Shown here piece by piece: positions 2,769 to 30,797 of a DNA stretch of 64,000 nt. The position numbers and the translations under genes are program-made. This DNA is from an uncultured Gemmatimonadota bacterium (GTDB lineage Bacteria; JAAXHH01), in contig OX638340.1 of NCBI GenBank assembly GCA_951812955.1, positions 3,616,001 through 3,680,000 of the forward strand, read 5' to 3'. Every line of letters starts with the position of its first letter. The first letter of the stretch is position 1. The notes under the pieces are model-generated. The model worked only from the letters and a program-made list of their open reading frames with translations, ran no database searches and was not told where the DNA came from.

Positions 2769-2773
2769 CAGCC

Positions 2774-3079: not shown

Positions 3080-3188
3080 CGAAATCCCATTACAGCACAT
3101 GTTGGACGCCGAGCGGGAGGCAGTGTGTTTTTCACGAGGACACAGTTGGTTGCAGCCGCTAAGTCAAGCCTACCATATCGCGCGTGAA
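3066..3188 (+). pseudogene. hepT: Truncated hepT (DUF86 RNase toxin) remnant, first ~40 codons only
   Basis: The ORF overlaps the mntA stop, as in intact pairs. It reads MCRDDEIPLQHMLDAEREAVCFSRGHS, which resembles HepT N-termini, then stops at 3188. The C-terminal Rx4HxY region is absent, and the vapC 3' end overlaps it. Confidence 0.5.
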
Positions 3189-12866: not shown

Positions 12867-13670
12867 ATGACTGTGATCTCAAAACGCATACTGCCCGGCG
12901 AGCGTCTCGACGACGCCTGGATGGAAGAAATACTCACGGACTTTTACAGGGACGGTTTCGCCCTTATACCGGGTGTGTTGACCCGGGATGAAATCGATGC
13001 CCTCCGCGAGGTGACGGACCGCTGCTTCAACGATCCCGTGCTGGCCGGCACTGATTACCTGAGCGGGCAGGGGGACGGATTCGTGCTCCGCAATACATTG
13101 GAACTGGACGCCGTATTCGTGGACATGCTGATTCGGGAGCCGATCCTGAGTCTGGCTGAAGCCGTCGTGGGAGAGGACTGTAAGTTCTGCGGGCAGAACG
13201 TGATCCGGAACGCGCCGGGCCAGGCCATTTCGCTGTGGCACGTGGACGACCGGGTGGAGTTCCCGTTGCCGGAAGACGTGCACCGCCACGACCCCCGCAT
13301 CCGCATGCCGGTGCAGTGGTTCACCATCCAGATGGCCCTGACAGATATCGATTCGGTGGAGGATGGTCCTACGCAGTTCGTGCCGGGCAGCCAGTATTCC
13401 GGCAGAGATCCCAACAGCCAGGAAAATCCGGAGTTCGAAGGCAGAGGACCGGTCTCTGCGTTATGCAAGGCGGGCGACGTCTACCTGCAGAACAACCAGT
13501 GCTGGCACCGGGGAGCGCCCGTCACATCGGATCAGATGCGCTATGTCTTCCAGTCCCAGTACGCCGCCCGTTGGGCCCACAGGCGGTTCAACGAGTATAA
13601 CCACGTACCTGTGCCGCCCACGGTTCTAAGCCGGGCCTCGGACAGGCTGCGTGGGGTGCTGGGTGCGTGA
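12867..13670 (+). CDS. PhyH-family Fe(II)/2OG dioxygenase (paralog 1)
   Basis: It has WHVDD (HxD), ALTDIDSVEDGPTQFVPGS and a distal CWHRG. A GTG at 12873 has better SD spacing (GGAG + 6 nt). Confidence 0.8.
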   Translation: MTVISKRILPGERLDDAWMEEILTDFYRDGFALIPGVLTRDEIDALREVTDRCFNDPVLAGTDYLSGQGDGFVLRNTLELDAVFVDMLIREPILSLAEAVVGEDCKFCGQNVIRNAPGQAISLWHVDDRVEFPLPEDVHRHDPRIRMPVQWFTIQMALTDIDSVEDGPTQFVPGSQYSGRDPNSQENPEFEGRGPVSALCKAGDVYLQNNQCWHRGAPVTSDQMRYVFQSQYAARWAHRRFNEYNHVPVPPTVLSRASDRLRGVLGA

Positions 13671-13760
13671 CGACATGTGCTCAGGTCGGCTTGGCTATTT
13701 AACGGGGCATCCGGCCGATTGCGCAGGCCGGTACCTGGCATGGCCTGATGTACGTCTTGA

Positions 13761-14966
13761 TTAGTGCACGATAGTATCGAACCGCGCGGGCAGCGCCACC
13801 TCGAGCAGCTCGAGGTCGTCGGAGCGGTCCGTGAGGGACGTTTTCGTGTGCGGCGGAATCACGTAGGCGTCTCCCGCCTCCAGCCGGTGTGCGCCCTGGT
13901 CATCCCCGTTCAGGGTCACCTCGCCTTCCATGACGAAGGTGAAGAGGATATCGCCAGTGTGGCTCGTGACCTGTTCCGCGCCTGACGGGCTTCCCTGTTC
14001 GCCTCCTCCGCCGGGGCCTGCGTATTCGCCGCTGATCGTGCCTCCTTGCGCGGAGCCATTCGAGCCGCTGTTCGCACGTGCGACCTGCACCGATGCTACG
14101 CCGCCCGTCGCCTCGCCGATCCCTGTTTCCCGGGCTTCGAATCCCGCTAGTCTCCAGGGTTTCCAGACCGCGTCTTTGAGCTGATGGCGGCAGAATGTCT
14201 GACCGCCGAAGACACGATCGGGGTTCAGCACTCCTGTCGGCAACTCGACCTCGTGGTCGATGGTGGTCACGTGGTCCGCGGGCACGCCGATTTCGATCAC
14301 CTGCAGGTTGTCGGAAGATTCGAGCACGCGATGCCGGATTTCCGGGGGTTGGATCACGCAGTCCCCCGCCTTGAGCATGAAAGGTGGCCCCTGGTCCTCG
14401 TAGACGAGCTTCACCTCGCCACGGTAACAGAAGATCAACTGGAATCCCACCGTATGATAGTGTACAACGTCGGGAACGGGACCGGCGTCGGGGATCCGGA
14501 TGTGGGAAGCAATGATGCTCCCACCCAGGCGGCCGGGCACCAGGTCGCGGTAGTGCATGCCGGCACGGCCGATTACCCAGGGCGTGTTGTCCTTCAGCCT
14601 CCGCACGAGGAAGGCGTGCTCCGTCGGCGGGATTTCCAGCGGCGGATCGGCCCGCACGATCTCGACCCGTGTGCCGTTCGGCGCGGTGAGTTCGGTCCGG
14701 CCGCCGGCCAGAACCGCCGGATCTCGACACAGGATTCGTATTGTGCCCGGCGGTTCGGACGCGCCCTGCTCCAGCCGGATGGTGAGCCCGTGGCCGGAAA
14801 GTACGGAAACTGACGGGTAGTCGGCGGGGTAGATCTTGTCCATACGGAAACCCAGGGTCTTCATGAAGAAGGCCAGGTCCGCGGACAAGTCCGAGGTCGG
14901 CAGCCGGATCTCGGCGCCCTGGATATTGTCCTCGCGGTTGGTCTGCTTGTCGTCATGCAATTGCAT
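13761..14966 (-). CDS. VOC/glyoxalase-like N-domain plus two cupin domains
   Basis: I chose the start at ATG 14966 (AAGGGAG 8 nt upstream, 13 nt after the upstream stop) rather than 15005. There are two cupin cores: DVVHYHTVGFQLIFCYRGE... and GDILFTFVMEGEVTL... Confidence 0.5.
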   Translation of the reverse strand: MQLHDDKQTNREDNIQGAEIRLPTSDLSADLAFFMKTLGFRMDKIYPADYPSVSVLSGHGLTIRLEQGASEPPGTIRILCRDPAVLAGGRTELTAPNGTRVEIVRADPPLEIPPTEHAFLVRRLKDNTPWVIGRAGMHYRDLVPGRLGGSIIASHIRIPDAGPVPDVVHYHTVGFQLIFCYRGEVKLVYEDQGPPFMLKAGDCVIQPPEIRHRVLESSDNLQVIEIGVPADHVTTIDHEVELPTGVLNPDRVFGGQTFCRHQLKDAVWKPWRLAGFEARETGIGEATGGVASVQVARANSGSNGSAQGGTISGEYAGPGGGGEQGSPSGAEQVTSHTGDILFTFVMEGEVTLNGDDQGAHRLEAGDAYVIPPHTKTSLTDRSDDLELLEVALPARFDTIVH

Positions 14967-14979
14967 ATCGCCAGCTCCC

Positions 14980-16101
14980 TTATCCTTCGAAACGATACTT
15001 CTCAACGACGTCCATGTTCAGCTCCGTACCCAGTCCGGGTTTCACGGGGAGCCGGAAATAGCCGCTTTCCACGACCGGCGGATCGGTCAGCAGGTCGTCG
15101 CGCCAGGGCGCGTCCCATTTTTCGTCCACGAACTCCAGCACCAGTGCGTTTGGGATATTGGCCATGACGTGAAGGCTCGCCGTCGTGGACACGGCGCTGT
15201 TCGGATTATGGGGCGAGACCTGCATGTAGTAGCTTTCCGCCATGGCGGCGATCTTCTTGGTCTCCATGATGCCGCCCGTGCGCACAACGTCGGGCATGAT
15301 CATGTCCACCGCCTGGGCGGCGATCAGGTCCCGGAAGCCGAAGCGCGTATACCGTCGTTCGCCCACGCAAACGGGCACGTTGACGGACGCGGTCACCCGG
15401 GCCAGGGCGTCGATGTTCTCCGGGTGGACCGGCTCCTCGTAGAACAGCAGGCCGATTTCCTCGAGCCGGTTGCCGATGCGGATCGCGGCGCTCGTGGTGT
15501 ACCGGCATCCCACGTCGGTACAGAGGTCCACCCCGTCGCCCACGGCCTCGCGGCACCGGCGCATGTGTTCCAGGGCCATCTTCTCTTCCTTCAGCGTGAC
15601 AGAGCGAGGCGAGTCAATGCGTTCCCCTTTGACCAGCGGATCCGAGGGGAAGTACGCCTTGATGGCGGTAACGCCCTTGGCGGCCAGTTCTGCGCACTCC
15701 TCCGGGTCGGAGGCATGGCTGTAGAACCGAATGCGGTTGCGGCACGGTCCGCCGATGAGATTGTAGATGGGCTGACCGGTGACCTTGCCCACGATGTCCC
15801 AGAGGGCGATCTCGATGCCGCTGATCGCCGCGATGACCGTACCAGTCTGCCCGATCTGCTCCAGGGCGTAGTACATACGGTGGTACAGGTACTCTATGTG
15901 GAACGGATCCTCGCCGATGATGAGCTTGCTCAGTTCGTCCACGGACTGTGCGATGATGGTGCCGCCCGGCCAGTTCGTCGCGTCCCCCAGGCCCACGACC
16001 CCCTCGTCCGTGTAGACCTGCACGAAGACCCACGGCGAGCCGATGTCCGTCGATTTGCGCCAGGACTCCACCAGGTGCACTTTCACATCGGTGATTTTCA
16101 T
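14980..16101 (-). CDS. Enolase-superfamily (mandelate racemase/muconate-lactonizing type) sugar-acid dehydratase-like enzyme
   Basis: MKITDVKVHLV...VFVQVYTDEGVVGLGDAT...AISGIEIALWDIVGKVTGQPIYNLIGG is the classic N-terminal capping-domain pattern. Confidence 0.85.
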   Translation of the reverse strand: MKITDVKVHLVESWRKSTDIGSPWVFVQVYTDEGVVGLGDATNWPGGTIIAQSVDELSKLIIGEDPFHIEYLYHRMYYALEQIGQTGTVIAAISGIEIALWDIVGKVTGQPIYNLIGGPCRNRIRFYSHASDPEECAELAAKGVTAIKAYFPSDPLVKGERIDSPRSVTLKEEKMALEHMRRCREAVGDGVDLCTDVGCRYTTSAAIRIGNRLEEIGLLFYEEPVHPENIDALARVTASVNVPVCVGERRYTRFGFRDLIAAQAVDMIMPDVVRTGGIMETKKIAAMAESYYMQVSPHNPNSAVSTTASLHVMANIPNALVLEFVDEKWDAPWRDDLLTDPPVVESGYFRLPVKPGLGTELNMDVVEKYRFEG

Positions 16102-16215
16102 GAGATGCCTTTGGACTCTTTCATACAGATTCCGGCCGATTTCGTCGCTGGGCGCGCCAGATCATCTCTCCTGACAGACCGCATCGTGCCCGAATTCGAT
16201 GTCAGCCTGCTGGCT

Positions 16216-17094
16216 TCAGTCCCGTCGCAGGTTGCTGAACTCCGGTTTCGGACCGCCCTCTTCACGGTCCCACTGCCACAGTTCCGTGTAGGGCGACTGG
16301 GCGTGGAAACCGAAGATGACCGGTCCGTCTTCGCCCGCCCGTTCGAGCACGTCCGGATTGACCACGCGGGGCATCTCGTACTCGCAACGGGTCCAACGCC
16401 TCCGCCAGGGGCTCAACACCGCATAGCGCGGCTGGTCGGTCTGGTTCTTCGTCGTACCATGCCAGGTATTCACGTCGAAGAGCACGAGCGATCCTTCCGG
16501 GGCGACGGCAGTCCGGGCGTTGCCATAGGCCGAATCGGGCACGTCGAGGTACTCGTACCGGTGGCTGCCCGGGACGAACTCCGTCGCGCCGTTGGTCTCG
16601 GTAAAGGGGCTCAGGCAGAAGATCGTGTTCAAGGCGATCGAGTGGCTCGTGATCCGCCGGCCCTCGTCGGCATCGGGCATGGATGCGTCCCGGTTGTGAC
16701 CGGTGATACCGCTGTCGGAATGCAGCCCGTGTCCGCCTTCACCGGGCATCACCACCGATCCGTACACGGCGCTCAAAAGCGCGTCGGGGCCCAGGAAGTG
16801 TCTCGTCAGCCTCAGATGGTCGGGAAGCTGGTAGAACCGTTCGAACACCCGCGCCTTGTTGAAGAGCCATTCGAAACTGCCCCGCTCGCGGTTGGGGTAA
16901 CGTGTTTCGAGTTCCCTTCGCGCTTCCGCGCATTCCTCTGCCGTCAACTGGTCCGTCAGGATGGTGTATCCCTCAACCTTCAGGTCCAGCACGTGGGCTT
17001 GAAAGGATTCGTCTGTCATAGGTTGATTCCGGCTCTCATGTGATGCTTGTTCGACCAGCGCAGGGTTTGGCGGATCAACGGCCGGTATGGCCAT
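16216..17094 (-). CDS. PhyH-family dioxygenase (paralog 2)
   Basis: It has GLHSDSG (HxD), CLSPFTETNGATEFVPGSH and a distal NTWHGTTKN. The start is uncertain (17094 or ATG 17019). Confidence 0.75.
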   Translation of the reverse strand: MAIPAVDPPNPALVEQASHESRNQPMTDESFQAHVLDLKVEGYTILTDQLTAEECAEARRELETRYPNRERGSFEWLFNKARVFERFYQLPDHLRLTRHFLGPDALLSAVYGSVVMPGEGGHGLHSDSGITGHNRDASMPDADEGRRITSHSIALNTIFCLSPFTETNGATEFVPGSHRYEYLDVPDSAYGNARTAVAPEGSLVLFDVNTWHGTTKNQTDQPRYAVLSPWRRRWTRCEYEMPRVVNPDVLERAGEDGPVIFGFHAQSPYTELWQWDREEGGPKPEFSNLRRD

Positions 17095-17120
17095 CGCCCG
17101 GTCCGCGGCGTCCGCTCGAA

Positions 17121-17936
17121 TCAGCGTCCGGCCAGGTCGTCTCCGAGGTCGGTTGCGTCCACTTTGCCTTTCTCCAGGCTCACGCCGACGACGAAGAGCT
17201 CGAGGTCATCGTCCGTATGGTTGTAGATTCCGTGAGCACTGCCCAGGTTATTCAGAATGGCGTCCCCGCGGACGACCTCCTCGGTCTCGCCGTCCACCGT
17301 GATCCGGCCCCGGCCGTTCATGATCATGTAGGCTTCGTCCACGATCTCGTGCCGGTGGTAGCCCACGGAAGTACCCGGCGGCAGTAGGATATGGCAGAGG
17401 TATTCGAAATTTGTCGTGAAATCCCGACTTCCCCATACCTCCCGGAAAAGCACTTCGCCCTTTCCACCGTGATGCCGCCGGGGCTTCAGTAAGGCGCGGT
17501 TGAACCGTCCCACGGGCAATCGATCAGCGGACTCCAGCTTGACCTCTATGCGCGGGTCGTCGAAATCCTCGCACATCGGGGTGCGGGTGGGGTCCACACA
17601 GTGGAAGTTGAAGAACCAGGTATCCTGGTCCGAGTGGTTGTAGATGCCGTGGGATTCACCCGAGCGGAGGGGCACCGCCGCGCCGCCGTCGACTTCGGTC
17701 GTGCGGCCGTTGTGGGTGAACTGCATGGCGTTGTCGATGGTGACGAAGATCTCTTCCGAGTGGATGTGCGTGTGTTGCCCGATGCCGCTGCCGGGCGGGA
17801 AGATGACAGAGTGGATGAACGACCAGGGAGACTTGAACGCCGTCGCATCGAACCCCGGGTTGAAATAGCTCGCCGCGGCGCCGCCGTGGCTGACGCCCAA
17901 TCTCATCTCTTCGCGCCTTGTATGGGTTATCCGCAT
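17121..17936 (-). CDS. Bicupin protein
   Basis: Two cupin metal motifs are present: GIGQHTHIHSEEIFVTIDN and SVGYHRHEIVDEAYMIMNGRG. Confidence 0.6.
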   Translation of the reverse strand: MRITHTRREEMRLGVSHGGAAASYFNPGFDATAFKSPWSFIHSVIFPPGSGIGQHTHIHSEEIFVTIDNAMQFTHNGRTTEVDGGAAVPLRSGESHGIYNHSDQDTWFFNFHCVDPTRTPMCEDFDDPRIEVKLESADRLPVGRFNRALLKPRRHHGGKGEVLFREVWGSRDFTTNFEYLCHILLPPGTSVGYHRHEIVDEAYMIMNGRGRITVDGETEEVVRGDAILNNLGSAHGIYNHTDDDLELFVVGVSLEKGKVDATDLGDDLAGR

Positions 17937-17993
17937 GCGGACCGCTCCGGACTCCCCGACGATGGCATCATCCGGGGTGTATCTGTACCAAAG

Positions 17994-18794
17994 CTAAAGG
18001 GCGACTTCCTCGACAGGCTGCGTGCCGGTCTCGTAGGCGGGCCGCCACCGGTCGTGGGCCATGGACTCCTCCTCGCTGAGCCCGCACAGCCAGTTCCAGG
18101 TGTGGATGCGGCGTCTCAGGTCCCGGTAGGATTCCACTCCACTCGTGTATGGCGCGGCCGGCCGGTCGCGGTACACGGGGATTTCTTCCGAATCGATGAG
18201 CCAGTCGCGCTGCGGCGGTGCATTGCGGAAGTAGGAGAATTTGATCATGCTGCGGGGCTTGTGATTGAGCTTCGGGCCCGCCCGGTGCCAGATGCCGTAC
18301 CGGGTGATGGCCACGGTGCCGGCCTTCACTACGAGCGAAAGCTGGCCCGTGAGATCGCCGTAGTGGGCGAGGGCGTCGCGGTTGACCGCCCGGCAGTGGG
18401 AACCGGGCAGGATCATGGTCGGCCCGTCTTCGATCCCCACGTCCTGCGGATAATAGTAGCACTGGAGTTCGTTGATCTCGTAACCCTGGCCGGAAATGCC
18501 GTCCGAATGCCAGTCCTGACCCGCGACGGGCTCGTTTATGAGGTGGTGATGGCCGCCCGTCGGCATCAGGAAGTTGGCACCGAGCAGCGAACGTATCACG
18601 CCTGCCAGCCGCGGATGGAGCAGGACTTCGCGGACGAAATCCGGTGAACCGACCAGTTCCTTCGCGCGGCCGACCTTGACGTTGCGGCACTGCGCGTTGA
18701 AACCGGGATCCACCATTTCTTCAAGCACCGCGTAACCCTTCGCCACGAAATCCATCACGTCGTCGTCGGTCATTGTCGGTCTGATCTCCGCCAT
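17994..18794 (-). CDS. PhyH-family dioxygenase (paralog 3)
   Basis: It has QDWHSDG (HxD), DVGIEDGPTMILPGSH and a distal GIWHRAG. Confidence 0.75.
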   Translation of the reverse strand: MAEIRPTMTDDDVMDFVAKGYAVLEEMVDPGFNAQCRNVKVGRAKELVGSPDFVREVLLHPRLAGVIRSLLGANFLMPTGGHHHLINEPVAGQDWHSDGISGQGYEINELQCYYYPQDVGIEDGPTMILPGSHCRAVNRDALAHYGDLTGQLSLVVKAGTVAITRYGIWHRAGPKLNHKPRSMIKFSYFRNAPPQRDWLIDSEEIPVYRDRPAAPYTSGVESYRDLRRRIHTWNWLCGLSEEESMAHDRWRPAYETGTQPVEEVAL

Positions 18795-18806
18795 CGCAGC
18801 GCCTCC

Positions 18807-19235
18807 TCAGTTCCACTTCTCGAGTATGAAATCGAAACCCACGTAGTCGTTTTCCAGGTCCTTGTACTCGTACAGCTTGGGGATGGGGTACTGCACCACG
18901 CGCCACCCGTCGGCAACGGCCTCCAGCACGGAGTCGTACGGCGGCTCGTCGCCCGGCAGTCTCAGCACGGGCTTCTCGCCGGGAACGAATACCACCCAGC
19001 CCACGATCCCGGACCGCATATTGGTCGACCGTGCGGTCAGGTACATGATCTTCGGCCGGGGCGGGTTTTCCAAGAACGATTCCAGCTTGTCCAGGTCCCG
19101 TTCTTCCAGTGCGCCGTTTTCGAGTTTCCCGCGGCTTTCAGCGATCCACTGCCTGATTTCCGATTGCATTTCGTGATGTCCCTTTGCCGAGTCTGACGTC
19201 GCGGACAATACAGATGCTAAAGGTGTAATGTACAA
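18807..19235 (-). CDS. Hypothetical protein, first gene of the minus-strand PhyH/cupin operon
   Basis: It is co-oriented with the next gene and 12 nt upstream of it. I recognise no motif. An internal ATG at 19169 (MQSEIRQW) is an alternative start. Confidence 0.4.
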   Translation of the reverse strand: MYITPLASVLSATSDSAKGHHEMQSEIRQWIAESRGKLENGALEERDLDKLESFLENPPRPKIMYLTARSTNMRSGIVGWVVFVPGEKPVLRLPGDEPPYDSVLEAVADGWRVVQYPIPKLYEYKDLENDYVGFDFILEKWN

Positions 19236-19533
19236 GGCGTTCTGATTATCGATGTCAGGAGTACGAATGCTCCTGCAATGGTACAGAGGCTACCGGTACC
19301 GTGTCAAGCAGGAATGAACCGTCTTTTTTGAAGGTGGTTTCGGCATGGAAGCCGCTGGTCTTGACAGCGTCCGGCACGCCGCTTAAGTTGCCTTCTGACG
19401 GTCATCGAAATGCGATCATCCAGGTCATTCAGTTCATTCCGACCAGCTGAACAGCGTGCGCAATTCGGGCAGAAACTTCCGGTCCGTCGATTTCCCGTTA
19501 CCAATTTCGATTCTCAGTTTAAAGGTATTCTAT

Positions 19534-20283
19534 ATGTCCCACGCGCAACCCCTGAATGCCCAGCAGATCGCCTACTTCAAGCTAAACGGCTACCTGGTCC
19601 TGAAGAACGTTTTCGACGAGGGAACCCTGGAGGCATGGCGGCGGCAGATCTGGCGGGCGCTCGATGGCTGCCTCGAAGATCCCGCGACCTGGCCCAGGGA
19701 AACGAGCGGTCTAGACGGGTACGATTACGATCCGCCCGAATCGGCCCTTGTGCACCATCCACAGATGATGGCGATCATCGACCAGCTCAGCGGGGGAACT
19801 TTCGTCGCTGGCGACGGCATTCCGATCATTCGGTGGCCCGATCCAGGAAAGTCCTGGGAAATGCCCCAAACGGGACATATCGATGCCTACGGGGGACGCT
19901 GGCTGCCCTTCATGATCGGCGCGACGACCTACCTGTACGACGTGGAACCCGGCGGCGGAGCCTTGATCTACTGGCCGGGAAGCCACCACGCCGCTCACCG
20001 GTACTTTCTCGAGCATCCCTCGCATGTCGACGGCAGCTTCCTGGAGATCGAGGGGTTTTCGTGGGACGTGTTCTGCGACAACCCGGCCACCGGCGGCCAG
20101 GAGTTTACCGCGAAGGCCGGCGACGTGGTGCTCTGGCATGCCTACCTGACCCACAACGGATCGGAAAATACCAGTCATTCGCCGCGCTTCGCCCTCTTCG
20201 CACGCTGGAACCATGAGAAACACCTGGAGCAGTCCTTCAGATACGAGATCCCCGAGGATCTGTGGAAGTATTGGGCGGTGTGA
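19534..20283 (+). CDS. PhyH-family dioxygenase (paralog 4)
   Basis: It begins MSHAQPLNAQQIAYFKLNGYLVLKNVF. It has TGHIDAYG (HxD), GGGALIYWPGSH and a distal YLTHNGSEN. The ORF-track N-extension from 19456 looks non-coding. Confidence 0.75.
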   Translation: MSHAQPLNAQQIAYFKLNGYLVLKNVFDEGTLEAWRRQIWRALDGCLEDPATWPRETSGLDGYDYDPPESALVHHPQMMAIIDQLSGGTFVAGDGIPIIRWPDPGKSWEMPQTGHIDAYGGRWLPFMIGATTYLYDVEPGGGALIYWPGSHHAAHRYFLEHPSHVDGSFLEIEGFSWDVFCDNPATGGQEFTAKAGDVVLWHAYLTHNGSENTSHSPRFALFARWNHEKHLEQSFRYEIPEDLWKYWAV

Positions 20284-20452
20284 GAGAGAACGCCTAAACT
20301 GCGGTTGTTTGATAGAAAACCGTCGTCTCGTGTAATGAGGCATACCTTAGAGCTGAAGATCCGTACAGAGATTCCCGGTTCAAGCCGGTTCGCTGTCTCG
20401 CCGTCGACAATATGATTTCGAGAACAGTCGCTGTTCCCCGACTATACTGTCA

Positions 20453-20863
20453 ATGAGCTCAGTACCGGAACCGGATCAAGAGGAAGATCTTATGGGGAAA
20501 ATCATGAATGATTCCGCGAGCGTATCCGTTTTCGAGGTCGTTGGCAACGCTCTTTGCGTTGCTTCCGACGACGGCCAGAGAGTACACGACCGACTTTCGA
20601 CTGCATTGAAGGATAGCCGCCATGTGAATCTTTCTTTTCGCAACGTGACATCGCTTACTTCGGCTTTTCTGAACACCGCGGTCGGCCAATTGTATGGAAC
20701 CTTCAGCGAAGATCATATACGTACGCAGTTGAACATCGAAGAAATGTCCCTGGATGATCTGGTGTTACTCGAGCGTGTGGTCGACACAGCGAAGCAATAC
20801 TTCAAAGACCCTCAAAGATTCGAACAAGCGCTTCGTGAGGAAATGGATGACTATGACGACTGA
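20453..20863 (+). CDS. STAS-like domain protein (DUF4325-type)
   Basis: The pattern GQRVHDRLSTALKDSRHVNLSFRNVTSLTSAFLNTAVGQLYG matches what I recall for DUF4325 (x-V-x-LDF-x-GV...SSF). It has an acidic C-terminus. Confidence 0.5.
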   Translation: MSSVPEPDQEEDLMGKIMNDSASVSVFEVVGNALCVASDDGQRVHDRLSTALKDSRHVNLSFRNVTSLTSAFLNTAVGQLYGTFSEDHIRTQLNIEEMSLDDLVLLERVVDTAKQYFKDPQRFEQALREEMDDYDD

Positions 20864-21395
20864 TTCCAAGGCGCTCGCGGTGAATGAACACGAATTCAGT
20901 CGTAGAGATAGGTTGTTTCTTGATACTAATATCTGGTTGTATCTATTCGGTCCGCATAAACCCAAGGCAAGAGCGATCGACACGTATTCAAGTGTGCTTA
21001 AGCGGATTCTGGATGCGGGTAGCAGAATCTATATCGACGTTCTGATCGTTTCAGAGTTCATCAACGCATGCGCCAGGTTGAATTGGCATCTTGCAACAAA
21101 CAGGAAAATTGGTTTCAAAGCATTTCGAAATTCGTCATCTTTCAAATCAGTCGCCAGGTCGGTGTCAAGCGACGCCGCGCGGGTTATGTCCCACTGCTTG
21201 CGTGTGGAAAGTGGATTCTCGGACATGGCCGCGACCGAATTGCTCAATGAATTTGTCACCGGAAAATGCGACTTCAACGATCAAGTTATCATAAGACTCT
21301 GTAAAAAAGAAGAACTAACCCTGATTACACACGACGCCGATTTCAAAGGCGCGGGGATTCCGATTTTGACAGCGAACCATCGTCTTCTGAACTAA
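20847..21395 (+). CDS. PIN-domain nuclease (VapC-like)
   Basis: It overlaps the upstream gene by 17 nt (or 11 nt if it starts at 20853). The acidic triad candidates are LFLDTNIWLYLF, VLIVSEFINA and LITHDADF. Confidence 0.65.
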   Translation: MTMTTDSKALAVNEHEFSRRDRLFLDTNIWLYLFGPHKPKARAIDTYSSVLKRILDAGSRIYIDVLIVSEFINACARLNWHLATNRKIGFKAFRNSSSFKSVARSVSSDAARVMSHCLRVESGFSDMAATELLNEFVTGKCDFNDQVIIRLCKKEELTLITHDADFKGAGIPILTANHRLLN

Positions 21396-21399
21396 TCCC

Positions 21400-22227
21400 A
21401 TGCCCGCCTACCCCCGCTACCTCACCAAAGCTCAATTGGAGCAGTTCTGGTCCGACGGCTACCTGGTTTTGAAAGGCACGCTGGATCAAGAAGTGGTAGA
21501 AAAAGCCCGCGAATTCCTGCTGGACCTGATCCCGCGGGACCTGGTCATCCCGGACCACTACCACGCGAACCACGGCCGGTTCAAGCCCCACCACCCCGAC
21601 GGGAATGGCAGCTTTTTTGAACCTGCGATGCTGCCCCTGATGCAGAACGAAGCACTTTACGGCGCTGCCGTGGATATACTGGAGACAGAATACATCCGGG
21701 TGTGGGACGGTTCGGCGGGGATAACGCTAAGAAACCGCGCCATGGAAGGACGGCTCCAGAACCTCCACCTCGACGCTGTACCGGGAGGGCCCGAAGACCT
21801 GAATGAGGGGTTCCTTCGCACGGGAATAGGTATCGGCGGATGTTATTACCTGAACAAGGTTGAAGGTGAGGGCGGCGGCATCCACGTGGTTCCCGGCGGG
21901 CCGAACCGGGTGAGGGATATCATGCTTAACGAACCGGACGGTCTGACGCGCAACAACGGCTGGGGTCATATCACCGATTTTTCGTCGTCCATGGAGGTAA
22001 CCGGTGATGCCGGCGATTTCGTGCTGATGCATCACCTGATGCCCCACTCGGCCAGCGCCAATCACAACGCCGCGCCACGGATCGCCCAGTTCACCCGTCT
22101 GCAGGCCCTGACGGACGATGACGCCCGCCTCGCTCCGGGTCCCGACCGACCCCTGGACCCCGCAGCGCTTGGCGCCCTGACACCCCTGGGACGCAAACTG
22201 TTCCGCCTGGCCCCGTGGATCGGGTAA
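21400..22227 (+). CDS. PhyH-family dioxygenase (paralog 5)
   Basis: It has LTKAQLEQFWSDGYLVLKG, NLHLDAV (HxD), GGGIHVVPGG and a distal LMPHSASAN. Confidence 0.7.
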   Translation: MPAYPRYLTKAQLEQFWSDGYLVLKGTLDQEVVEKAREFLLDLIPRDLVIPDHYHANHGRFKPHHPDGNGSFFEPAMLPLMQNEALYGAAVDILETEYIRVWDGSAGITLRNRAMEGRLQNLHLDAVPGGPEDLNEGFLRTGIGIGGCYYLNKVEGEGGGIHVVPGGPNRVRDIMLNEPDGLTRNNGWGHITDFSSSMEVTGDAGDFVLMHHLMPHSASANHNAAPRIAQFTRLQALTDDDARLAPGPDRPLDPAALGALTPLGRKLFRLAPWIG

Positions 22228-22242
22228 TTTGTAGTTCCGCAA

Positions 22243-24216
22243 TTGGAACGGACGTACTCCATGTCCTCTGAACCTCCCCGGTCCCGTGGCCCTTCGGCCA
22301 TATCCCTGCGGGCCGGGATCATCGGGCTCGCGCTCTCCGCCGTGGTGGCTTTCTGGGGCCAGTTCGCCGCCGATCACGCCGGTTACAACTATACCACCTA
22401 CGCCCATATCCCCTCGGCGCTGCTGATCCCCTTCCTGATCCTGATCCTGGGTCCCCACGTCCTGCTCAAGAGGCTGGCGCCCGGGTACGCCCTGACGACT
22501 TCCGAGCTGATCGTGATTTTCGTCATGGGCCTGATCGGTTCGATGGTGCCCGACTGGGGCATGACGAGATACCTGGTCTCCCTCATCACGGGGCCCTTCT
22601 ACCATGCGAGTCCCGAGAACCGCTGGGCGGAGACTTTTTTCGAGACCTTGCCCGGGTGGCTCGTGATCAGCGGCAAGACGGACGCGGTACGGGTTTTCTA
22701 CGAAGGCGCCGCGCCGGGTTACCGGATCCCGTGGATGGCCTGGATCTCGCCCCTGCTGTGGTGGATGTCGTGTTTCGCCGCCCTGATGTGGACGGGCGCA
22801 TGCATCGTGGTCATCCTGCGAAAGCAATGGGTCAGCCACGAAAGGCTGCGCTTTCCCCTGGGGGAGGTATCGCTCAACCTGATGGGCGTGGCGAAGGACC
22901 CGAACGAGCCGCCCATGGTCCGCACGACTGCCTTTCGTATCGGCGCCGGCCTGTCGCTGGCCGTCGTGTGCTGGAACATCGCCTCCTACTGGGACATCGT
23001 TACCCCTATCCCCATCATGGGGCCGGACCTGCTGTATCTGAAGGTCCATCCGTCGATACCGGATCTTCCCATCCGGCTGAATGTCTTCGTACTGTGTTTC
23101 GCTTTCTTCATAAACGCCGAGATCCTGTTCAGCCTGTGTTTCTTCCTGCTCTTCACCACGCTGCAGCGGGGGCTGATGAACATGCTCGGGATCACGGCGG
23201 CCACGACCATGTCTCCTACCGGGCTCGTGGGCACCCAGTCCATCGGTGCCCTGATCGCCCTGGTGGTGTGGGGATTGTGGATGGCCCGTCGTCACCTGGC
23301 CGGTGTGGCCCGGCGGGCGTTTCGAAAGGATCCGTCGATCGATGACAGCAGTGAGTTCTTCTCGTACCGGGTGGCGGTTTTCGGATTGATCTTCGGCATG
23401 CTCTACCTGCTGGCATGGCTTTACAGCATCGGCATGTCGCTGCCCGTCAGCCTTGTCCTCCTGGCCGTACTCTTCATCGTCTACATCGGAATGGCCCGGA
23501 TCGTTGCGGAGGCGGGTCTGGTCGCCATGGACCTGCCGGTAACAGCCAACAACTTCACCGGGGGCATTATCGGCGCCGACAACCTGGACCCGTCCTCGAT
23601 CACCGCTATGGGCATGACGAACGCCTTCGCCCGGAACTGGCGGACCTTTACGATGATCGGGCTGTCTCACGCCGCCTACCTGCAGCGCTGGATGGGGCCG
23701 TCCACCCGGCACCTCTTCCTCTGGATCTGCCTGGCCTTCGCCGTCAGTGTCGTAACTTCCCTCTACTACTACATCAGCGCGGGTTATGCAGTCGGCGCCG
23801 ATAATCTGCTGTCCAAGCCCGGCGACCTCGTACCCTTCTTCTACAACACGATCATGACGTGGAACAGCAGCGCAAGCAGTGTCTCGGAACTGGAACTGAT
23901 CTTCTTCGGGAACGGTATCGTCCTGTACATGCTGATGATCCTCGGACGCTTCATGTTTCTCTGGTGGCCGCTGCATCCCATCGGCCTGGTCGCCGTGGCC
24001 GCGGACACCGTGCGGTTCATGTTCCTACCCTTCCTGCTGGCCTGGCTCGTCCAGGTAATCCTGCTGCGCCTGGGTGGAGGAGCCCTTTACCGCAGAGCGC
24101 AGCCCCTGTTTCTCGGCATCCTGGTTGGATATGTCCTTGGGATGGCCCTCTCATTCCTGGTGGACAGCCTGTGGTTTCCGGCCGCACCGCACCAGTTCGA
24201 ATCCTTTATCAACTGA
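22243..24216 (+). CDS. Large polytopic membrane protein of uncharacterised family (paralog A), candidate transporter
   Basis: It is 657 aa with many hydrophobic segments throughout. It shares blocks with 28259-30250: RKQWVSHERLRFPL, WWPLHPIGL and LLRLGGGALYRRAQP. From memory it may be DUF6785/DUF6784-type; not verified. Confidence 0.7.
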   Translation: MERTYSMSSEPPRSRGPSAISLRAGIIGLALSAVVAFWGQFAADHAGYNYTTYAHIPSALLIPFLILILGPHVLLKRLAPGYALTTSELIVIFVMGLIGSMVPDWGMTRYLVSLITGPFYHASPENRWAETFFETLPGWLVISGKTDAVRVFYEGAAPGYRIPWMAWISPLLWWMSCFAALMWTGACIVVILRKQWVSHERLRFPLGEVSLNLMGVAKDPNEPPMVRTTAFRIGAGLSLAVVCWNIASYWDIVTPIPIMGPDLLYLKVHPSIPDLPIRLNVFVLCFAFFINAEILFSLCFFLLFTTLQRGLMNMLGITAATTMSPTGLVGTQSIGALIALVVWGLWMARRHLAGVARRAFRKDPSIDDSSEFFSYRVAVFGLIFGMLYLLAWLYSIGMSLPVSLVLLAVLFIVYIGMARIVAEAGLVAMDLPVTANNFTGGIIGADNLDPSSITAMGMTNAFARNWRTFTMIGLSHAAYLQRWMGPSTRHLFLWICLAFAVSVVTSLYYYISAGYAVGADNLLSKPGDLVPFFYNTIMTWNSSASSVSELELIFFGNGIVLYMLMILGRFMFLWWPLHPIGLVAVAADTVRFMFLPFLLAWLVQVILLRLGGGALYRRAQPLFLGILVGYVLGMALSFLVDSLWFPAAPHQFESFIN

Positions 24217-24310
24217 GTACTACCCTCATAAACTCACCAGAACACAGGATCGCGGAACCGTAAATGAAGCCCTGATATCGAAACCGTAAAAGAACGTCTG
24301 ACGAAAGTTC

Positions 24311-24368
24311 GCAATCATCCGAAACGGAAGCGAGACGCAATCATCCGAAACGGAAGCGAGACGCAACC
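24311..24368 (+). repeat. Perfect 26-nt tandem duplication (2 full copies plus a partial third) forming the 5' leader of the sulfatase gene
   Basis: gcaatcatccgaaacggaagcgagac occurs at 24311-24336 and 24337-24362. A third partial copy, gcaaCcatgg, contains the ATG at 24369. Confidence 0.9.
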
Positions 24369-25733
24369 ATGGCCACGAAATCCGGACGCCCCAATCTCCT
24401 GTTTATCATGGACGACCAGCACCGGCACGACTACCTGTCCGCGGCGGGAGCGACCTTCGTGCGCACGCCGAACCTGGACTGTTTGGCGGAACGCGGGGTC
24501 CGATTCAGCCAGTGCATAACCAACGCCCCGGTCTGCGCGCCCGCGCGCATCGGCCTGGCCAGCGGCTACCAGCCCGCGCGGCTGGGGTGCCTGGACAACA
24601 ACTGCTACCTGCCCCGCCATATCACGCCCTATTACGTCCGGCTTCGGGACGCGGGATACCGGGTCGGGTGCGTGGGGAAACTCGACCTGGCCAAGCCGGA
24701 TCCCTACAACGGCCGCCACGGCGACCGAGCCCGGGTGTTCGGTTGGGGTTTCACCCATCCCGTGGAATGCGAAGGCAAGATGCACGCGGGCATGGCGGAC
24801 CAGCCGCGGGGACCTTATGGATTCTGGCTTCAGGAGCAGGGACTCTTCGAACGCTTCCGGACGGATTACGCGGCCCGGGGAGCGCGGGGCTGGATCGAGG
24901 GTGCTTCCCATGATTCTATATTGCCTGAGGACGCTTTCGAGGATGCCTACATTGGCCGCCGCGCCGTGGAATGGATGGACACCGTCCCCGACGATTACCC
25001 GTGGCATCTCTTCGTCAGCTTCGTGGGGCCGCACGATCCCTTCGATCCGCCTACGTCATACGCGGAACGATACCGGGGCGCTGCCGTGCCGCCGGCAATA
25101 CGAAGCAACGAAGAGGGGAAGCCGTCCTGGGTCAACGCCCGTCGGCGCGACCTGTCCGAAGATGAAGTGGCAGTTACGCGCCGGCAGTATTGCGCGGTCA
25201 TCGAACTGATCGACGACCAGGTAGGCCGGATCATCGAAGCCGTAGAACGGCGGGGCATGGCGGAGGATACCATCGTCGTGTTCGCCAGCGACCACGGCGA
25301 AATGCTGGGCGACCATGGCCTGTACACCAAATCCGTTCCCTACGAGGTGGCCCTGCGCGTGCCGCTCATTGCCGCTGGACCAGGCATAGCGGGAGGGCGT
25401 ACTTCCGACGCCCTCGTGGAACTGATCGACGTCAATCCGACCCTGTGCGGTCTGGCGGGTCTGCCCGCCCAGGAAGGGCTCGACGCCAGCGACTTCAGCG
25501 CCGTGCTCACCGGGGATCGTTCGACCCACCGCGAGGAAGCGGCCAGCGCGCTTCGCGAATTCCGGCTCGTACGCACGGCGGATCACAAGCTTGTGGTGCA
25601 CCACACGGGTGAAACGGAGCTATACGACCTGAAAAACGATCCTGAAGAGCTTGAAAACGTGGCGGCCGATCGGCCCGATGCGGTCAACGCGCTGCGAAGG
25701 CGTCTGCAGCGGCGATTTCACTTCCCGCCCTAA
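24369..25733 (+). CDS. Formylglycine-dependent sulfatase, no signal peptide
   Basis: It has PNLLFIMDDQHRHD and the CxPxR signature VCAPARIGLASG. The catalytic domain begins at about residue 8. Confidence 0.85.
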   Translation: MATKSGRPNLLFIMDDQHRHDYLSAAGATFVRTPNLDCLAERGVRFSQCITNAPVCAPARIGLASGYQPARLGCLDNNCYLPRHITPYYVRLRDAGYRVGCVGKLDLAKPDPYNGRHGDRARVFGWGFTHPVECEGKMHAGMADQPRGPYGFWLQEQGLFERFRTDYAARGARGWIEGASHDSILPEDAFEDAYIGRRAVEWMDTVPDDYPWHLFVSFVGPHDPFDPPTSYAERYRGAAVPPAIRSNEEGKPSWVNARRRDLSEDEVAVTRRQYCAVIELIDDQVGRIIEAVERRGMAEDTIVVFASDHGEMLGDHGLYTKSVPYEVALRVPLIAAGPGIAGGRTSDALVELIDVNPTLCGLAGLPAQEGLDASDFSAVLTGDRSTHREEAASALREFRLVRTADHKLVVHHTGETELYDLKNDPEELENVAADRPDAVNALRRRLQRRFHFPP

Positions 25734-25787
25734 CGCCGGCGATTTCACTTCCCGCCGTGACCCTCCGTGACCATGCCGGACATGCCG

Positions 25788-26624
25788 TCAAGACCGGCCG
25801 TAAGGCGCGCCATCGGGCGAGGCATGTTGCGGTGAGACGATCTGGCGTCGTTCGGGCGTAAGACGGTCCAGCAGTTCGGGCGAGGGCTGGTACCCGTGGC
25901 GGAAATTGCCCCAGGAAGGTCCGTACCGGTAGACCACGATACGGCGCGTTCCCGCGTTTCGCCGGGTGGCCGAACCGTGGGAGATGCCATCCACGAACAA
26001 CAGGGCGTCGCCGGCCTCCATAAACAGTTCCGCGGAACCGGTAATGCCCTCCACGGAAGCGCCCTTGGGCTTCATGGCGTGCCGGGCGAATTCTGGGTGG
26101 ATGAAGTTGGATTTGTGACTGCCCGGGATGACCATGGTGGCGCCGTCCCCGGGACCGATGTCGGTCAGGGCCATGAGCACATTGACCTGCCCGCACATGA
26201 ACCGGCCGCCGTGGTAGCGGAAGCCGTTGCGCATGATGGGCGGGTATCCCCCGGAATGCAGCCCGATCGCCTCTCCCGGCTCCCGGAAATTTGCGAAGTT
26301 CTCGTCGATGAACAGCGGGCCGTGTGCGTAGTCGAAGGTACCCTCCCCGCCCACGAAATGCTTGACCCGGTCGAACCACGAAGGATGGTCGATCAGGGCT
26401 TCGAACGGGGCGCCCGCTTCGTAAATCTGCTGGAGGTTCAGGCCGTCCACGGTGCCGTAGGTATGGGCGTTGACGAATCCGTGCCATTCGCCCGGCGACA
26501 GGGCCGGGAATTCGTCCAGGGAGGCGTTCAGTTCCGCCACTTCCGCCCTCGACAGGGCCTGCTTCAGATGGAGGAATCCGTTCAGGTCGAAGAGATAGAC
26601 ATCCAGGTCGTCAAGATTGCTCAT
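25788..26624 (-). CDS. PhyH-family protein (paralog 6) with H-S-G in place of the HxD iron ligands
   Basis: The start is ATG 26624 (MSNLDDLDVYLFDLNGFLHLK). It has GLHSGGY (codons at 26250-26258), ALTDIGPGDGATMVIPGSH and a distal DGISHGSATR. Confidence 0.65.
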   Translation of the reverse strand: MSNLDDLDVYLFDLNGFLHLKQALSRAEVAELNASLDEFPALSPGEWHGFVNAHTYGTVDGLNLQQIYEAGAPFEALIDHPSWFDRVKHFVGGEGTFDYAHGPLFIDENFANFREPGEAIGLHSGGYPPIMRNGFRYHGGRFMCGQVNVLMALTDIGPGDGATMVIPGSHKSNFIHPEFARHAMKPKGASVEGITGSAELFMEAGDALLFVDGISHGSATRRNAGTRRIVVYRYGPSWGNFRHGYQPSPELLDRLTPERRQIVSPQHASPDGAPYGRS

Positions 26625-26808
26625 GGGATTGTACCGTTTCTCCAGGGAAATCCTGTTGATTTGTCCCGCCCGATTCGTTACTCTCTTGATCGGCAATATA
26701 TCTCGCCAACCAGCGATACACAACCCAATTGCACTGGGAACCGCGCGAGACGCCGGCCGGATCCATTCCATCCCGAAATATCCGCGTAGACAGGACGAGG
26801 TAACCTGA

Positions 26809-28182
26809 ATGAAGGCCGTTTCACAGCCCAACGTGCTGATTGTGCTGAGTGATCAACTGCGGCGGCAGGCCCTGTCCACCTACGGCGATCCGAACATCGT
26901 CACGCCTCACGTCGACGACCTGGCCGGCCGGGGTGTTCGATTCGAGAACGCCAGTTCTACCTGTCCCATCTGCGTCCCTTTCCGTTTCACTTTCATGACG
27001 GGGCTGTACGCCCATGACCGGAAGGTACCTGGTATCGAGTACAGGATGTCTCCCGCGGAACGCACCCTGGCCGACGAGTTCAACGAGGCGGGGTACGAAA
27101 CGATCTATACGGGCAAATGGCATCTCGACGGAGGTCACGGCCGCATGGGGTCCGCCCGGCAGTGCGGGCGGATGCCCGTGAAGAAGGCCTACCGGGGCCG
27201 CTGGCAGAAGTGGATGGGTTTCGAACTCAGAAACGGCCCCTTCGATACCTTTTATTTCGAAGACGACGACCCGACGCCAAAACCGGTAGAAGGATACCAG
27301 ACCGACGGGCTTTTCGAGCTCGCCATGGACTACCTCGAGACCCGGGATCCGTCCCGTCCCTTCTGCATGGTGGTTTCCGTCGAGCCGCCCCACGATCCTT
27401 TCGAGGCCCCGGAGGCGATGCAGCGCACCTGGGAGGCGATGGACATCGTGCTTCCGCCCAACGTCGACGCGGCCGACGCCGAGGCCATGGAACGGATCAT
27501 GCTCAACCGGAAGCGGTATTACGCCATGGTGGAAAACCTGGACTGGAACATGGGGCGCCTCGGCGCATTTCTGCTGCGAACCGGCCTCCACGGCGAGACC
27601 GTGGTCGTGTTTCTTTCGGATCACGGAGAACTCGGCGGCGCCCATGGACTCCGGGGAAAGCAGTGGCCTTACGAGGAGTCGACGGGAATCCCCCTGATCG
27701 TGGCGGATCCACGGCACCCGGACCGGGCCGGTGCCTTGATCGAAGATCCGGTCTCCACCGAGGACCTGTTCCCCACCATACTCGGTCTGGCCGGGCTGCG
27801 ACCACGGGACGCCCTTCCCGGCGAAAACCTTGCACCGTTGATACACGGCAACACCGGACGGCTGGAGCGGGAAGGCGTGATGCTCGAGTTCGTGGCTGAA
27901 CTGCGTCAGGGCATGGCCTTCTACGACCAGGTCTGGCGTGGGTACCGATCCGCTCGGTACAAGTATACCGTGTGCGGGGACAACCTCGGCGGCGCCGGGC
28001 CGTGGCAGTTCTTCGATCTGGCGGAGGATCCCTGGGAACAGCGAAATCTCATTGACGATCCCGCTTTCCGGCCGGAGATCACGCGTCACCATGGCCTTCT
28101 CCTGGACAGGATGAAGGAGACCGACGACCACTTCGTACTCCTACCCGCCTTCGGAATGGAAGGATTGAATACCTGGGATTGA
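26809..28182 (+). CDS. Formylglycine-dependent sulfatase, no signal peptide
   Basis: It has PNVLIVLSDQLRR and the CxPxR signature CVPFRFTFMTG. The domain starts at about residue 7. Confidence 0.85.
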   Translation: MKAVSQPNVLIVLSDQLRRQALSTYGDPNIVTPHVDDLAGRGVRFENASSTCPICVPFRFTFMTGLYAHDRKVPGIEYRMSPAERTLADEFNEAGYETIYTGKWHLDGGHGRMGSARQCGRMPVKKAYRGRWQKWMGFELRNGPFDTFYFEDDDPTPKPVEGYQTDGLFELAMDYLETRDPSRPFCMVVSVEPPHDPFEAPEAMQRTWEAMDIVLPPNVDAADAEAMERIMLNRKRYYAMVENLDWNMGRLGAFLLRTGLHGETVVVFLSDHGELGGAHGLRGKQWPYEESTGIPLIVADPRHPDRAGALIEDPVSTEDLFPTILGLAGLRPRDALPGENLAPLIHGNTGRLEREGVMLEFVAELRQGMAFYDQVWRGYRSARYKYTVCGDNLGGAGPWQFFDLAEDPWEQRNLIDDPAFRPEITRHHGLLLDRMKETDDHFVLLPAFGMEGLNTWD

Positions 28183-28258
28183 ACCCCGCGATCCTCGCTA
28201 AGCACCGCACAGGATCCGTCGGCGGCTGTGTCTGAATCCAGAGGAAATCGAAGCATAC

Positions 28259-30250: not shown

Positions 30251-30283
30251 TCTTGCTGCGTCCTGCTGATCTCCAGCAGGCGC

Positions 30284-30688
30284 GTGGGAGCGTTGAAAAT
30301 GTCGGAAGAACAGGATCCCCAGGAAATACTCGACCGCATCCTGGAAAACGACGGCCGATATCCCAGGAGGGCCTACCTCTTCGTCCTTGAGGCGGTTTCG
30401 TATACGGTGGAGAAACTGTCAGAACGCAGGCACATATCGGGGAAGGAACTTTCCATGGGCATCAGGGATCTCGCCCTCGAAAGGTTCGGCATCGCGGCGA
30501 AACTGGTGTTCGAAGAGTGGAACCTCACCAGAACCCGTCACTTCGGCGACATCGTCTTCAATCTGGTCAACGAGGGGTTACTGCGGAAAACCGAAGAGGA
30601 CGACATCGAGGATTTCGACGAGGTGTTCGACTTCACCACCGCGTTCGAAACCGAGTTCCGGATCACCGTGGAATCGAAGGACGGCTGA
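30284..30688 (+). CDS. Small conserved hypothetical, resembles the Minf_1886 family (Planctomycetes/Verrucomicrobia-type)
   Basis: The blocks YPRRAYLFVLEAVSYTV...RHISGKELSMGIRDLALERFG...FGDIVFNLVNEGLLRKTEEDDIEDF match my recollection of that family. ATG 30299 is an alternative start. Confidence 0.4.
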   Translation: MGALKMSEEQDPQEILDRILENDGRYPRRAYLFVLEAVSYTVEKLSERRHISGKELSMGIRDLALERFGIAAKLVFEEWNLTRTRHFGDIVFNLVNEGLLRKTEEDDIEDFDEVFDFTTAFETEFRITVESKDG

Positions 30689-30797
30689 TCACCGTTCCCC
30701 ATGGTGTTGTTTCGGTCTGCTTCGGCATCATCCCCCGGGCCTGAATTAGATGGGGCCTTCAGGCCTCAGCGGAATCCCTGACGCCAGATCTTTGGCC

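Follow-up and report, generated by a model that had tools for sequence, protein, structure and literature searches.

A STAS-PIN gene pair from an uncultured Gemmatimonadota bacterium as a probable kinase-less derivative of the VapKSC toxin-antitoxin system

Within a 64-kb stretch of DNA from an uncultured Gemmatimonadota bacterium (hereafter the window, i.e., the whole 64,000 nucleotides analyzed), two overlapping genes encode a STAS-like protein and a PIN-domain nuclease. The explanation we favor, to which we assign a probability of roughly 0.7, is that this pair (vapSC) derives from the VapKSC toxin-antitoxin (TA) and anti-phage system by loss of the kinase, and behaves as a plain type-II-like TA pair. 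The window copy itself is most likely a trigger-less TA remnant, predicted to be still functional, and a modest variant of a known system. The original prediction, made from the DNA letters, suggested that a STAS-like protein may restrain a PIN RNase in a TA or defense pair, and published experiments on the Escherichia homologues support this idea (PMC13373217). The hypothesis is thus essentially right, but already published.

VapKSC is a three-gene operon, vapK-vapS-vapC, described by Chambers, Rani, Min, Villa and Corbett (EMBO J 2026; PMC13373217; PDB 9Z7O). In that study, Escherichia VapC was toxic and its D28A mutant non-toxic, and VapS neutralized VapC in a 2:2 complex, mainly via its STAS domain and additionally via a C-terminal helix, which comes within about 6 Å of the VapC active site. 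Neutralization was abolished by the VapS phospho-mimic S48E or by deletion of residues 94-116. The upstream kinase VapK, a STAS+GHKL kinase whose activation by ssDNA is a prediction only, phosphorylates the VapS serine, upon which the toxin is released. The Ser/Thr phospho-acceptor of VapS (S48 in Escherichia) was reported to be absolutely conserved, and the vapKSC operon protected against one phage, Bas42, by about 2 logs (PMC13373217). A linkage of PIN and DUF4325 genes had been noted in 2017 for the PIN.4 subgroup by Matelska, Steczkiewicz and Ginalski (NAR; PMC5499597).

The two overlapping open reading frames of the window lie on the forward strand at 20453..20863 (136 aa) and 20754..21395. 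Within the latter, internal ATGs at 20847 and 20853 give proteins of 182 and 180 aa, and overlaps with the upstream gene of 17 and 11 nt, respectively, in agreement with the 182-aa PIN frame and the 11-17 nt overlap originally predicted. We assign the PIN-domain toxin gene, vapC, to 20847..21395 (+). For the STAS-like (DUF4325) antitoxin gene, vapS, the predicted length of 136 aa did not hold up. The ATG at 20453 is out of frame in the nearest relatives owing to an indel, VapS homologues are 119-123 aa long, a GAGGAA ribosome-binding site (20480-20485) lies 6 nt before the ATG at 20492, and in L081, a ~95%-identical genome, vapS was independently called as a 123-aa gene. For these reasons we prefer ATG 20492, and the antitoxin gene most likely spans 20492..20863 (+) and encodes 123 rather than 136 aa; an alternative start at 20504 would give 119 aa, and the 136-aa frame from 20453 is probably unused. 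The sequence motifs pointed out earlier (HVNLSFRNVTSLTSAFLNTAVGQLYG, LFLDTNIWLYLF, SEF and THDADF) are all present, as is the acidic tail of the STAS-like protein, EEMDDYDD.

The pair sits between two PhyH genes, as was predicted, and Pfam recognizes both flanks: a PhyH dioxygenase gene upstream (19456..20283, +; E 5.2e-15), which forms the left border of the islet and lies outside the system, and a PhyH-like gene downstream (21400..22227, +; E 9.1e-7), which forms its right border. The vapC stop codon ends at 21395, leaving a gap of 4 nt before the downstream gene, a spacing also present in two relatives (L002 and L081), and this gene is probably co-transcribed with the pair. The wider surroundings comprise PhyH, cupin, DUF6785 and sulfatase genes. 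With a G+C content of 0.476, the pair is AT-richer than its flanking genes (0.599 and 0.617) and the 64-kb window (0.60), and a G+C content below that of the surroundings recurs in 72 of 75 related loci.

Upstream of vapS lies a spacer (20284..20491, +; AT-richer, G+C 0.491), which presumably holds the promoter and 5' UTR in addition to the GAGGAA site; conservation in L001 and L002, the nearest relatives, covers its 3' ~130 bp. A promoter and terminator scan of this spacer found neither a sigma-70 consensus promoter nor an intrinsic terminator. A palindrome within it (GAACAG-TCG-CTGTTC, 6+3+6, at ~20424-20438) was dismissed as chance: a repeat-finding tool gave it no support, and L002 carries a different short palindrome.

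Both predicted domains score above the curated Pfam thresholds. The sole Pfam match of VapS is DUF4325 (PF14213, 'STAS-like domain'; E 3.6e-14; score 52.7 bits, threshold 23), and VapC matches the PIN domain (PF01850; E 6.7e-10; score 40.1 bits, threshold 23.6). Moreover, the family profiles of the two proteins match the two components of the solved complex, VapS matching 'Escherichia VapS' of PDB 9Z7O (E 1.4e-21) and VapC matching its chain C, 'Escherichia VapC' (E 1.6e-9). The AlphaFold2 (AF2) model of VapS, built for the 119-aa form, places helices at residues 83-101 and 103-118, and its structural neighbors are STAS domains. Residues 103-123 (YFKDPQRFEQALREEMDDYDD; 20798..20860, +), which comprise the C-terminal helix and the acidic tail, align with residues 94-116 of Escherichia VapS, and the Ser57 codon (20660..20662, +) aligns with the Escherichia phospho-acceptor Ser48; the neighboring, invariant Thr56 is kept as well. 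For VapC, the AF2 model has a pLDDT of 90.2, and its best Foldseek matches in the PDB are VapC toxins of VapBC complexes (7vwo_A, 2fe1 and 3zvk_B). The active-site stretch 'flvDTNvW' of the Escherichia toxin aligns with 'LFLDTNIW' in the window, so that Escherichia D28 corresponds to D26. All six putative catalytic residues of VapC are present on the forward strand, namely D26 (20922-20924), E70 (21054-21056), D142 (21270-21272), D145 (21279-21281), D163 (21333-21335) and D165 (21339-21341), and each is invariant or nearly so among 201 homologues.

Neither PADLOC (2023 database) nor NCBIfam yielded more than marginal matches for VapS and VapC, a near-silence explained by the fact that the VapS-VapC family post-dates them. 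Because of the 9Z7O matches, and because the operon list of the VapKSC paper (Dataset EV3 of PMC13373217) includes Poribacteria WGA-3G, i.e., locus L034 of our survey, the window pair, judged by sequence, belongs to the published VapKSC family and does not merely resemble it.

VapS and VapC each come from a family that is strongly conserved. Our survey covered 80 related loci, one genome per species, from at least ten phyla, including Poribacteria, Caldilineaceae, Latescibacterota, Nitrospirota, Nitrosomonas, Zetaproteobacteria, Deltaproteobacteria/Thermodesulfobacteriota, Binatia, Sumerlaeota, Desantisbacteria, Trueperaceae and others. A DUF4325 gene lies directly upstream of a PIN gene, on the same strand and overlapping it, in all 80 loci. 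The pairing, whose co-occurrence the original prediction had proposed counting, is therefore far beyond chance. The distribution of the kinase is another matter. Using phmmer with Escherichia VapK (the sequence in the paper's appendix), followed by an HMM of 58 VapK homologues, we found that vapS is directly preceded by vapK in 59 of the 80 loci, with no match in the other 21, among them L001, whose upstream flank is too short to judge. With a threshold as loose as E<=10, neither search returned a vapK match in any part of the 64-kb window, and a six-frame HMM search of the spacer at 20284..20491 revealed no vapK remnant or pseudogene.

Several lines of evidence bear on how such kinase-less loci arose. 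A kinase-bearing locus (L026) and two kinase-less ones (L031 and L033) occupy the same chromosomal site and differ by a clean 948-bp deletion, which spans positions 2138-3085, compared with 2202-3101 for vapK, and leaves the last ~16 nt of the kinase gene in place. On a neighbor-joining tree of concatenated VapS and VapC, Fitch parsimony requires at least four changes of kinase state, with a kinase-positive root. Furthermore, 17 kinase-less loci form a Poribacteria clade in a syntenic housekeeping context (a short-chain dehydrogenase gene upstream and an acetamidase gene downstream). The deletion, the state changes on the tree and this clade together indicate that kinase loss is real and recurrent, having occurred at least three to four times. 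Some loci of the Poribacteria clade are associated with a large DNA methylase. A phage or plasmid origin of the pair found no support: the family is almost missing from phage and plasmid collections, with a single relative in 2.9 million viral contigs, one distant match on a plasmid and one in a phage. The distant plasmid match is a full kinase-STAS-PIN operon.

The same chromosomal site in related genomes offers a view of what preceded the window arrangement. Collinearity between the window and L089 and L090 extends to the left and right of the pair, with 79-87% nucleotide identity; positions 19534-20283 correspond to 6113-6862 of L089 (87%), and collinearity resumes at 21418. Between the PhyH genes, L089 and L090 carry six genes, encoding an AAA_15 ABC-type ATPase, proteins of 153 and 83 aa, VapK, VapS and VapC. 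The ATPase is AriA-like and matches NsnB in PADLOC (4e-46). Compared with L089, the window is missing 3.1 kb, from the ATPase gene to vapK, and has an unrelated 182-bp spacer instead; nothing in the spacer region at 20284..20491 resembles vapK or L089. L089 can be aligned, at 78%, over vapS and the 5' third of vapC, and the 3' two-thirds of vapC show no nucleotide-level alignment between the two. The history must therefore have included replacement or rapid divergence, and not one deletion alone. The low G+C content had been taken to mark an insertion; the composition stands, and the collinearity indicates that the pair is a variable islet at a conserved site common to related genomes, not a recent insertion.

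Phosphorylation control, which the original prediction had considered, operates in the homologues through VapK and the VapS serine, but the window has no vapK with which to exert it; at this locus such control is probably lost or would need to act in trans. The phospho-acceptor itself is informative in this respect. All 59 kinase-linked loci have Ser or Thr at this position, compared with 16 of 22 kinase-less copies (four Ser, 12 Thr, two Pro, two Gly and two Ala). The hydroxyl is thus lost in 6/22 versus 0/59 (Fisher p 2.3e-4, not corrected for phylogeny), and these six losses are spread over several distinct branches. Of the 12 VapS proteins in the clade to which the window belongs, ten carry Pro at the acceptor, including those of the nearest relatives, L001 and L002. 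This distribution indicates that the phospho-switch relaxes once the kinase is gone. At the same time, comparison of the window with L002 gives dN/dS values of 0.10 (vapS) and 0.23 (vapC), and other kinase-less pairs range from 0.07 to 0.31, which indicates that both genes remain under purifying selection. Between the window and its ~95%-identical sister (L081), vapS has accumulated six non-synonymous versus three synonymous changes.

Arranged by the state of the kinase, the acceptor and the toxin, the window and its relatives form a series. L089 and L090 have vapK, an acceptor Ser and Glu at VapC residue 70. The window, which has no vapK, keeps Ser57 and Glu70. L081, without vapK, has an acceptor Ser, and its VapC residue 70 is Ala (GAG>GCG at 21055). 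L001 and L002 have no vapK (with the reservation already made for the short L001 flank), an acceptor Pro and Glu70. L086, also without vapK, combines an acceptor Pro with Gly at residue 70. Apart from these E70A and E70G changes, Glu70 is invariant, being kept in the other 200 of the 201 sequences compared. A 56-aa gene call at L086 had raised the possibility of a degraded vapC; we rejected it, given that the reading frame is intact and carries E70G. Orphan vapS genes without vapC occur in two loci, L087, in which a C-terminal vapK fragment lies upstream, and L088, which has neither vapK nor vapC. The toxin-inactivating changes in two close relatives suggest that the module may be heading for loss rather than serving a function, and the apparent order of decay, with the toxin disabled first and the antitoxin orphaned afterwards, suggests a course typical of a TA pair.

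Since the cis-encoded trigger is gone, we read the locus as a trigger-less type-II-like TA pair, for which we propose the following mechanism. VapC would act as a PIN nuclease toxin, presumably on RNA, and VapS would bind it (2:2 in the solved homologue) and shield its active site. Where the operon is canonical, ssDNA is the proposed activator of VapK, the GHKL kinase encoded upstream. In the window lineage, the vapK segment and the neighboring ABC-type ATPase defense gene would have been lost from the islet between the PhyH genes, leaving behind a translationally coupled vapS-vapC pair that keeps the STAS core, Ser57, the C-terminal helix with its acidic tail, and every catalytic acidic residue. 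Without the kinase, VapC would be freed only upon depletion of VapS, through turnover or expression shut-off, and the pair may persist mainly because loss of vapS before vapC would be lethal. The relatives with a dead toxin, and then those with an orphan vapS, would represent the expected next steps of decay. VapS is well folded and not an obviously labile antitoxin, so depletion as the trigger is conjecture. Complex formation, toxicity and the mode of activation are, for these two proteins, what we infer by analogy with their characterized homologues.

Alternatively, the pair might still be phospho-regulated, with a GHKL kinase that targets STAS proteins (VapK, CapK or another), encoded at a different genomic locus or supplied by a phage, phosphorylating Ser57 and freeing VapC; the locus would then be a functional two-gene defense effector with a trans-acting sensor. 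The retained Ser57 and invariant Thr56 fit this reading, as do the Thr acceptors kept in 12 of the 22 kinase-less loci (all in the 17-locus Poribacteria clade), the abundance of VapK-like proteins (1574 database matches) and the several vapSC or vapKSC copies found in some genomes. We nevertheless consider it unlikely, in view of the missing VapK in the window, the proline that prevails in the window's clade and the hydroxyl losses confined to kinase-less loci; in addition, among the best 120 of the 1574 VapK matches, none lies on contigs of that clade's genomes. Quite unlikely, too, is that the pair is an inert remnant, no longer expressed or toxic and awaiting deletion. The kinase and the neighboring defense ATPase are already gone, two close relatives (L081 and L086) carry E70A or E70G toxins, orphan vapS genes exist elsewhere in the family, the spacer scan found no consensus promoter, and the six non-synonymous versus three synonymous vapS changes relative to the ~95%-identical sister point the same way. 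The window frames are, however, intact, with catalytic residues, C-terminal helix, ribosome-binding site and coupled overlap, the deeper comparison with L002 gives dN/dS of 0.10-0.23, conservation of the upstream spacer extends to L001 and L002, and the 4-nt junction places the pair inside a transcribed unit.

It is also conceivable, though a long shot, that kinase-less vapSC works on its own, the STAS antitoxin being the sensor that responds to a trigger and frees the PIN nuclease. Such a trigger could be the binding of ssDNA, a nucleotide or a phage protein, or the action of a phage-encoded or non-cognate kinase at Ser57; regulation of the STAS-like protein by nucleotide binding, raised in the original prediction, found no support. 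Were this reading true, the long-lived and diversified kinase-less Poribacteria clade, with its DNA methylase association, would represent a distinct two-gene defense type. Finally, the STAS-like protein could in principle be an anti-sigma-factor antagonist working by partner switching, next to the PIN gene by coincidence. The overlapping-frame co-occurrence in 80/80 loci, the crystallization of the homologous pair as a complex (PDB 9Z7O) and the neighborhood of the window pair, among whose genes there is no adjoining anti-sigma GHKL kinase, PP2C phosphatase or sigma factor gene, effectively refute this.

Taken together, these results make the window pair most probably a trigger-less derivative of VapKSC. 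The principle of a phospho-controlled STAS antitoxin that restrains a PIN toxin has been published before, with a solved structure, and no new kind of system is found here. The value of the locus is rather that of a natural experiment, in which full vapKSC, kinase-less vapSC, dead-toxin vapSC (E70A/E70G) and, elsewhere in the family, orphan vapS can be set side by side, the series showing how a kinase-triggered defense module degrades. That the toxin is disabled first and that orphan antitoxins remain supports real toxicity of VapC and its neutralization by VapS in vivo. About a quarter of the nearest family members have no kinase and are invisible to the published census. The operons of PMC13373217 were found by a search seeded with VapK, so kinase-less pairs could not surface, and we found no mention of kinase-less vapSC pairs in its text.

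Of the known systems, VapKSC is matched in protein architecture and gene order: window VapS consists of a STAS domain followed by a C-terminal helix, window VapC is a PIN protein with the conserved catalytic Asp, and vapS lies immediately upstream of vapC, overlaps it and keeps the acceptor Ser (Ser57). The window differs from it in having no vapK, whose product is the defining sensor and switch of the published mechanism, in the decay of the phospho-acceptor in its clade, and in lying among metabolic genes and not recognized defense genes. The features of the PIN.4 subgroup (PMC5499597), a PF01850 PIN domain, five to six conserved acidic residues and a coupled DUF4325 gene, are likewise all found in the window; that work, however, was a classification only, without an antitoxin role, a kinase or experiments. 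With type II VapBC, the pair shares a small upstream antitoxin gene that overlaps, and is translationally coupled to, a downstream gene for a VapC-type PIN toxin, as well as the decay pattern typical of TA pairs, in which the toxin is inactivated first and orphan antitoxins remain. Yet the window antitoxin has a STAS fold, whereas VapBC antitoxins autoregulate their operon through an N-terminal DNA-binding domain of the RHH, AbrB, Phd/YefM or HTH type; no operator-binding autoregulation would be expected of window VapS; the solved homologous antitoxin, Escherichia VapS, leaves the catalytic Mg2+ in place (PMC13373217); and window VapC has roughly 50 extra residues. CapK-CapS, known from CBASS and other immune operons (PMC13373217), follows the same logic of a kinase and a STAS substrate and has a related STAS domain, but CapS has a DNA-binding domain and represses transcription, whereas VapS is without that domain and inhibits a nuclease directly. 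In contrast to SpoIIAA-SpoIIAB and RsbV-RsbW, the partner of VapS is a nuclease and not an anti-sigma kinase. Lacking one defining feature, the kinase, and sharing the architecture and gene order of the published pair, the window locus is best classified with VapKSC, as a variant (vapSC) without the kinase.

When the window was compared with L089, a syntenic relative carrying vapKSC, VapS was 82% identical, whereas VapC was only 56% identical. The nucleotide alignment ran at 78% through vapS and into the 5' portion of vapC, whereas the 3' two-thirds of vapC, together with the PhyH junction, yielded no alignment (window 21087-21417 vs L089:10584-11482). This loss of alignment within a single gene, along with the lower identity of VapC than of VapS, points to recombination or replacement inside vapC.

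VapC also varies at one of its putative catalytic residues, Glu70. In L081, a sister genome ~95% identical to the window, the residue is replaced by alanine (E70A, GAG>GCG, at window 21054-21056; L081:6001-6549, ENA ERZ18545484 ptg000768l), while it is unchanged in the other 200 of the 201 family members compared. The vapS genes of L081 and the window differ by six non-synonymous and three synonymous substitutions. A second loss of Glu70, independent of that in L081, is found in L086, a kinase-less locus of the window's clade, where E70G (L086:3353-3889, ENA ERZ23495391 scaffold_6) is accompanied by proline at the VapS phospho-acceptor site.

Several related loci depart from the usual arrangement of these genes. 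In L083, the order is vapK (290 aa), a tandem-vapS gene and a PIN gene; the middle product, P0121 (L083:4001-4687, 228 aa), contains two VapS units in tandem and is a natural VapS–VapS fusion. We also observed two orphan vapS genes lacking vapC (L087:2856-3366 and L088:1599-1955), both with alanine at the phospho-acceptor position. The former retains a C-terminal fragment of vapK and adjoins a Type ISP restriction enzyme, and the latter has an AAA_21 ATPase on one side and a DUF559 endonuclease on the other. In L020 (467-2460), where the upstream flank is short, a VapK homologue (1579-2460) lies 3' of vapS-vapC rather than 5'. In two kinase-bearing loci, L015 and L080 (vapC region ~5986-6525), the PIN match is N-terminally truncated or interrupted, and their vapC genes are possibly pseudogenes. 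Finally, five kinase-less Poribacteria loci carry a large same-strand ORF ending 11-68 bp 5' of vapS (L011:3308-5593, L014:3322-5595 and L040:3371-5644, as well as L013 and L044). In all three of those scanned (L011, L014 and L040) it encodes a ~757-aa N6/N4 DNA methylase, a possible new link between vapSC and a restriction–modification-like gene.

Among named relatives, the one closest to the window's vapS-vapC pair is a Latescibacterota MAG, and Poribacteria and Caldilineaceae MAGs supply most of the other related loci. The pair's surroundings, at window positions 13000-31000, are metabolic: a repetitive cluster comprising PhyH dioxygenases and cupins, an MR/MLE enzyme, sulfatases, and membrane proteins of the DUF6785/DUF6784 type. 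Just 5' of the PhyH gene, within a second lower-G+C patch (about 0.52 at 19050-19500), lies a conserved ORF of 120-142 aa (18807-19235, minus strand) that had no match in Pfam and has counterparts in L081, L086 and L089 at the equivalent position.

The islet between the PhyH genes holds further genes in L089. At the site of window 20284-20465 (L089:6977-9122), L089 also carries an AAA_15/AAA_21 ATPase gene, followed by genes of 153 aa and 83 aa without a family match. The ATPase gives NsnB as its top PADLOC match (4e-46) and also resembles AriA and HEC. The PhyH–PhyH junction looks like a small defence hotspot.
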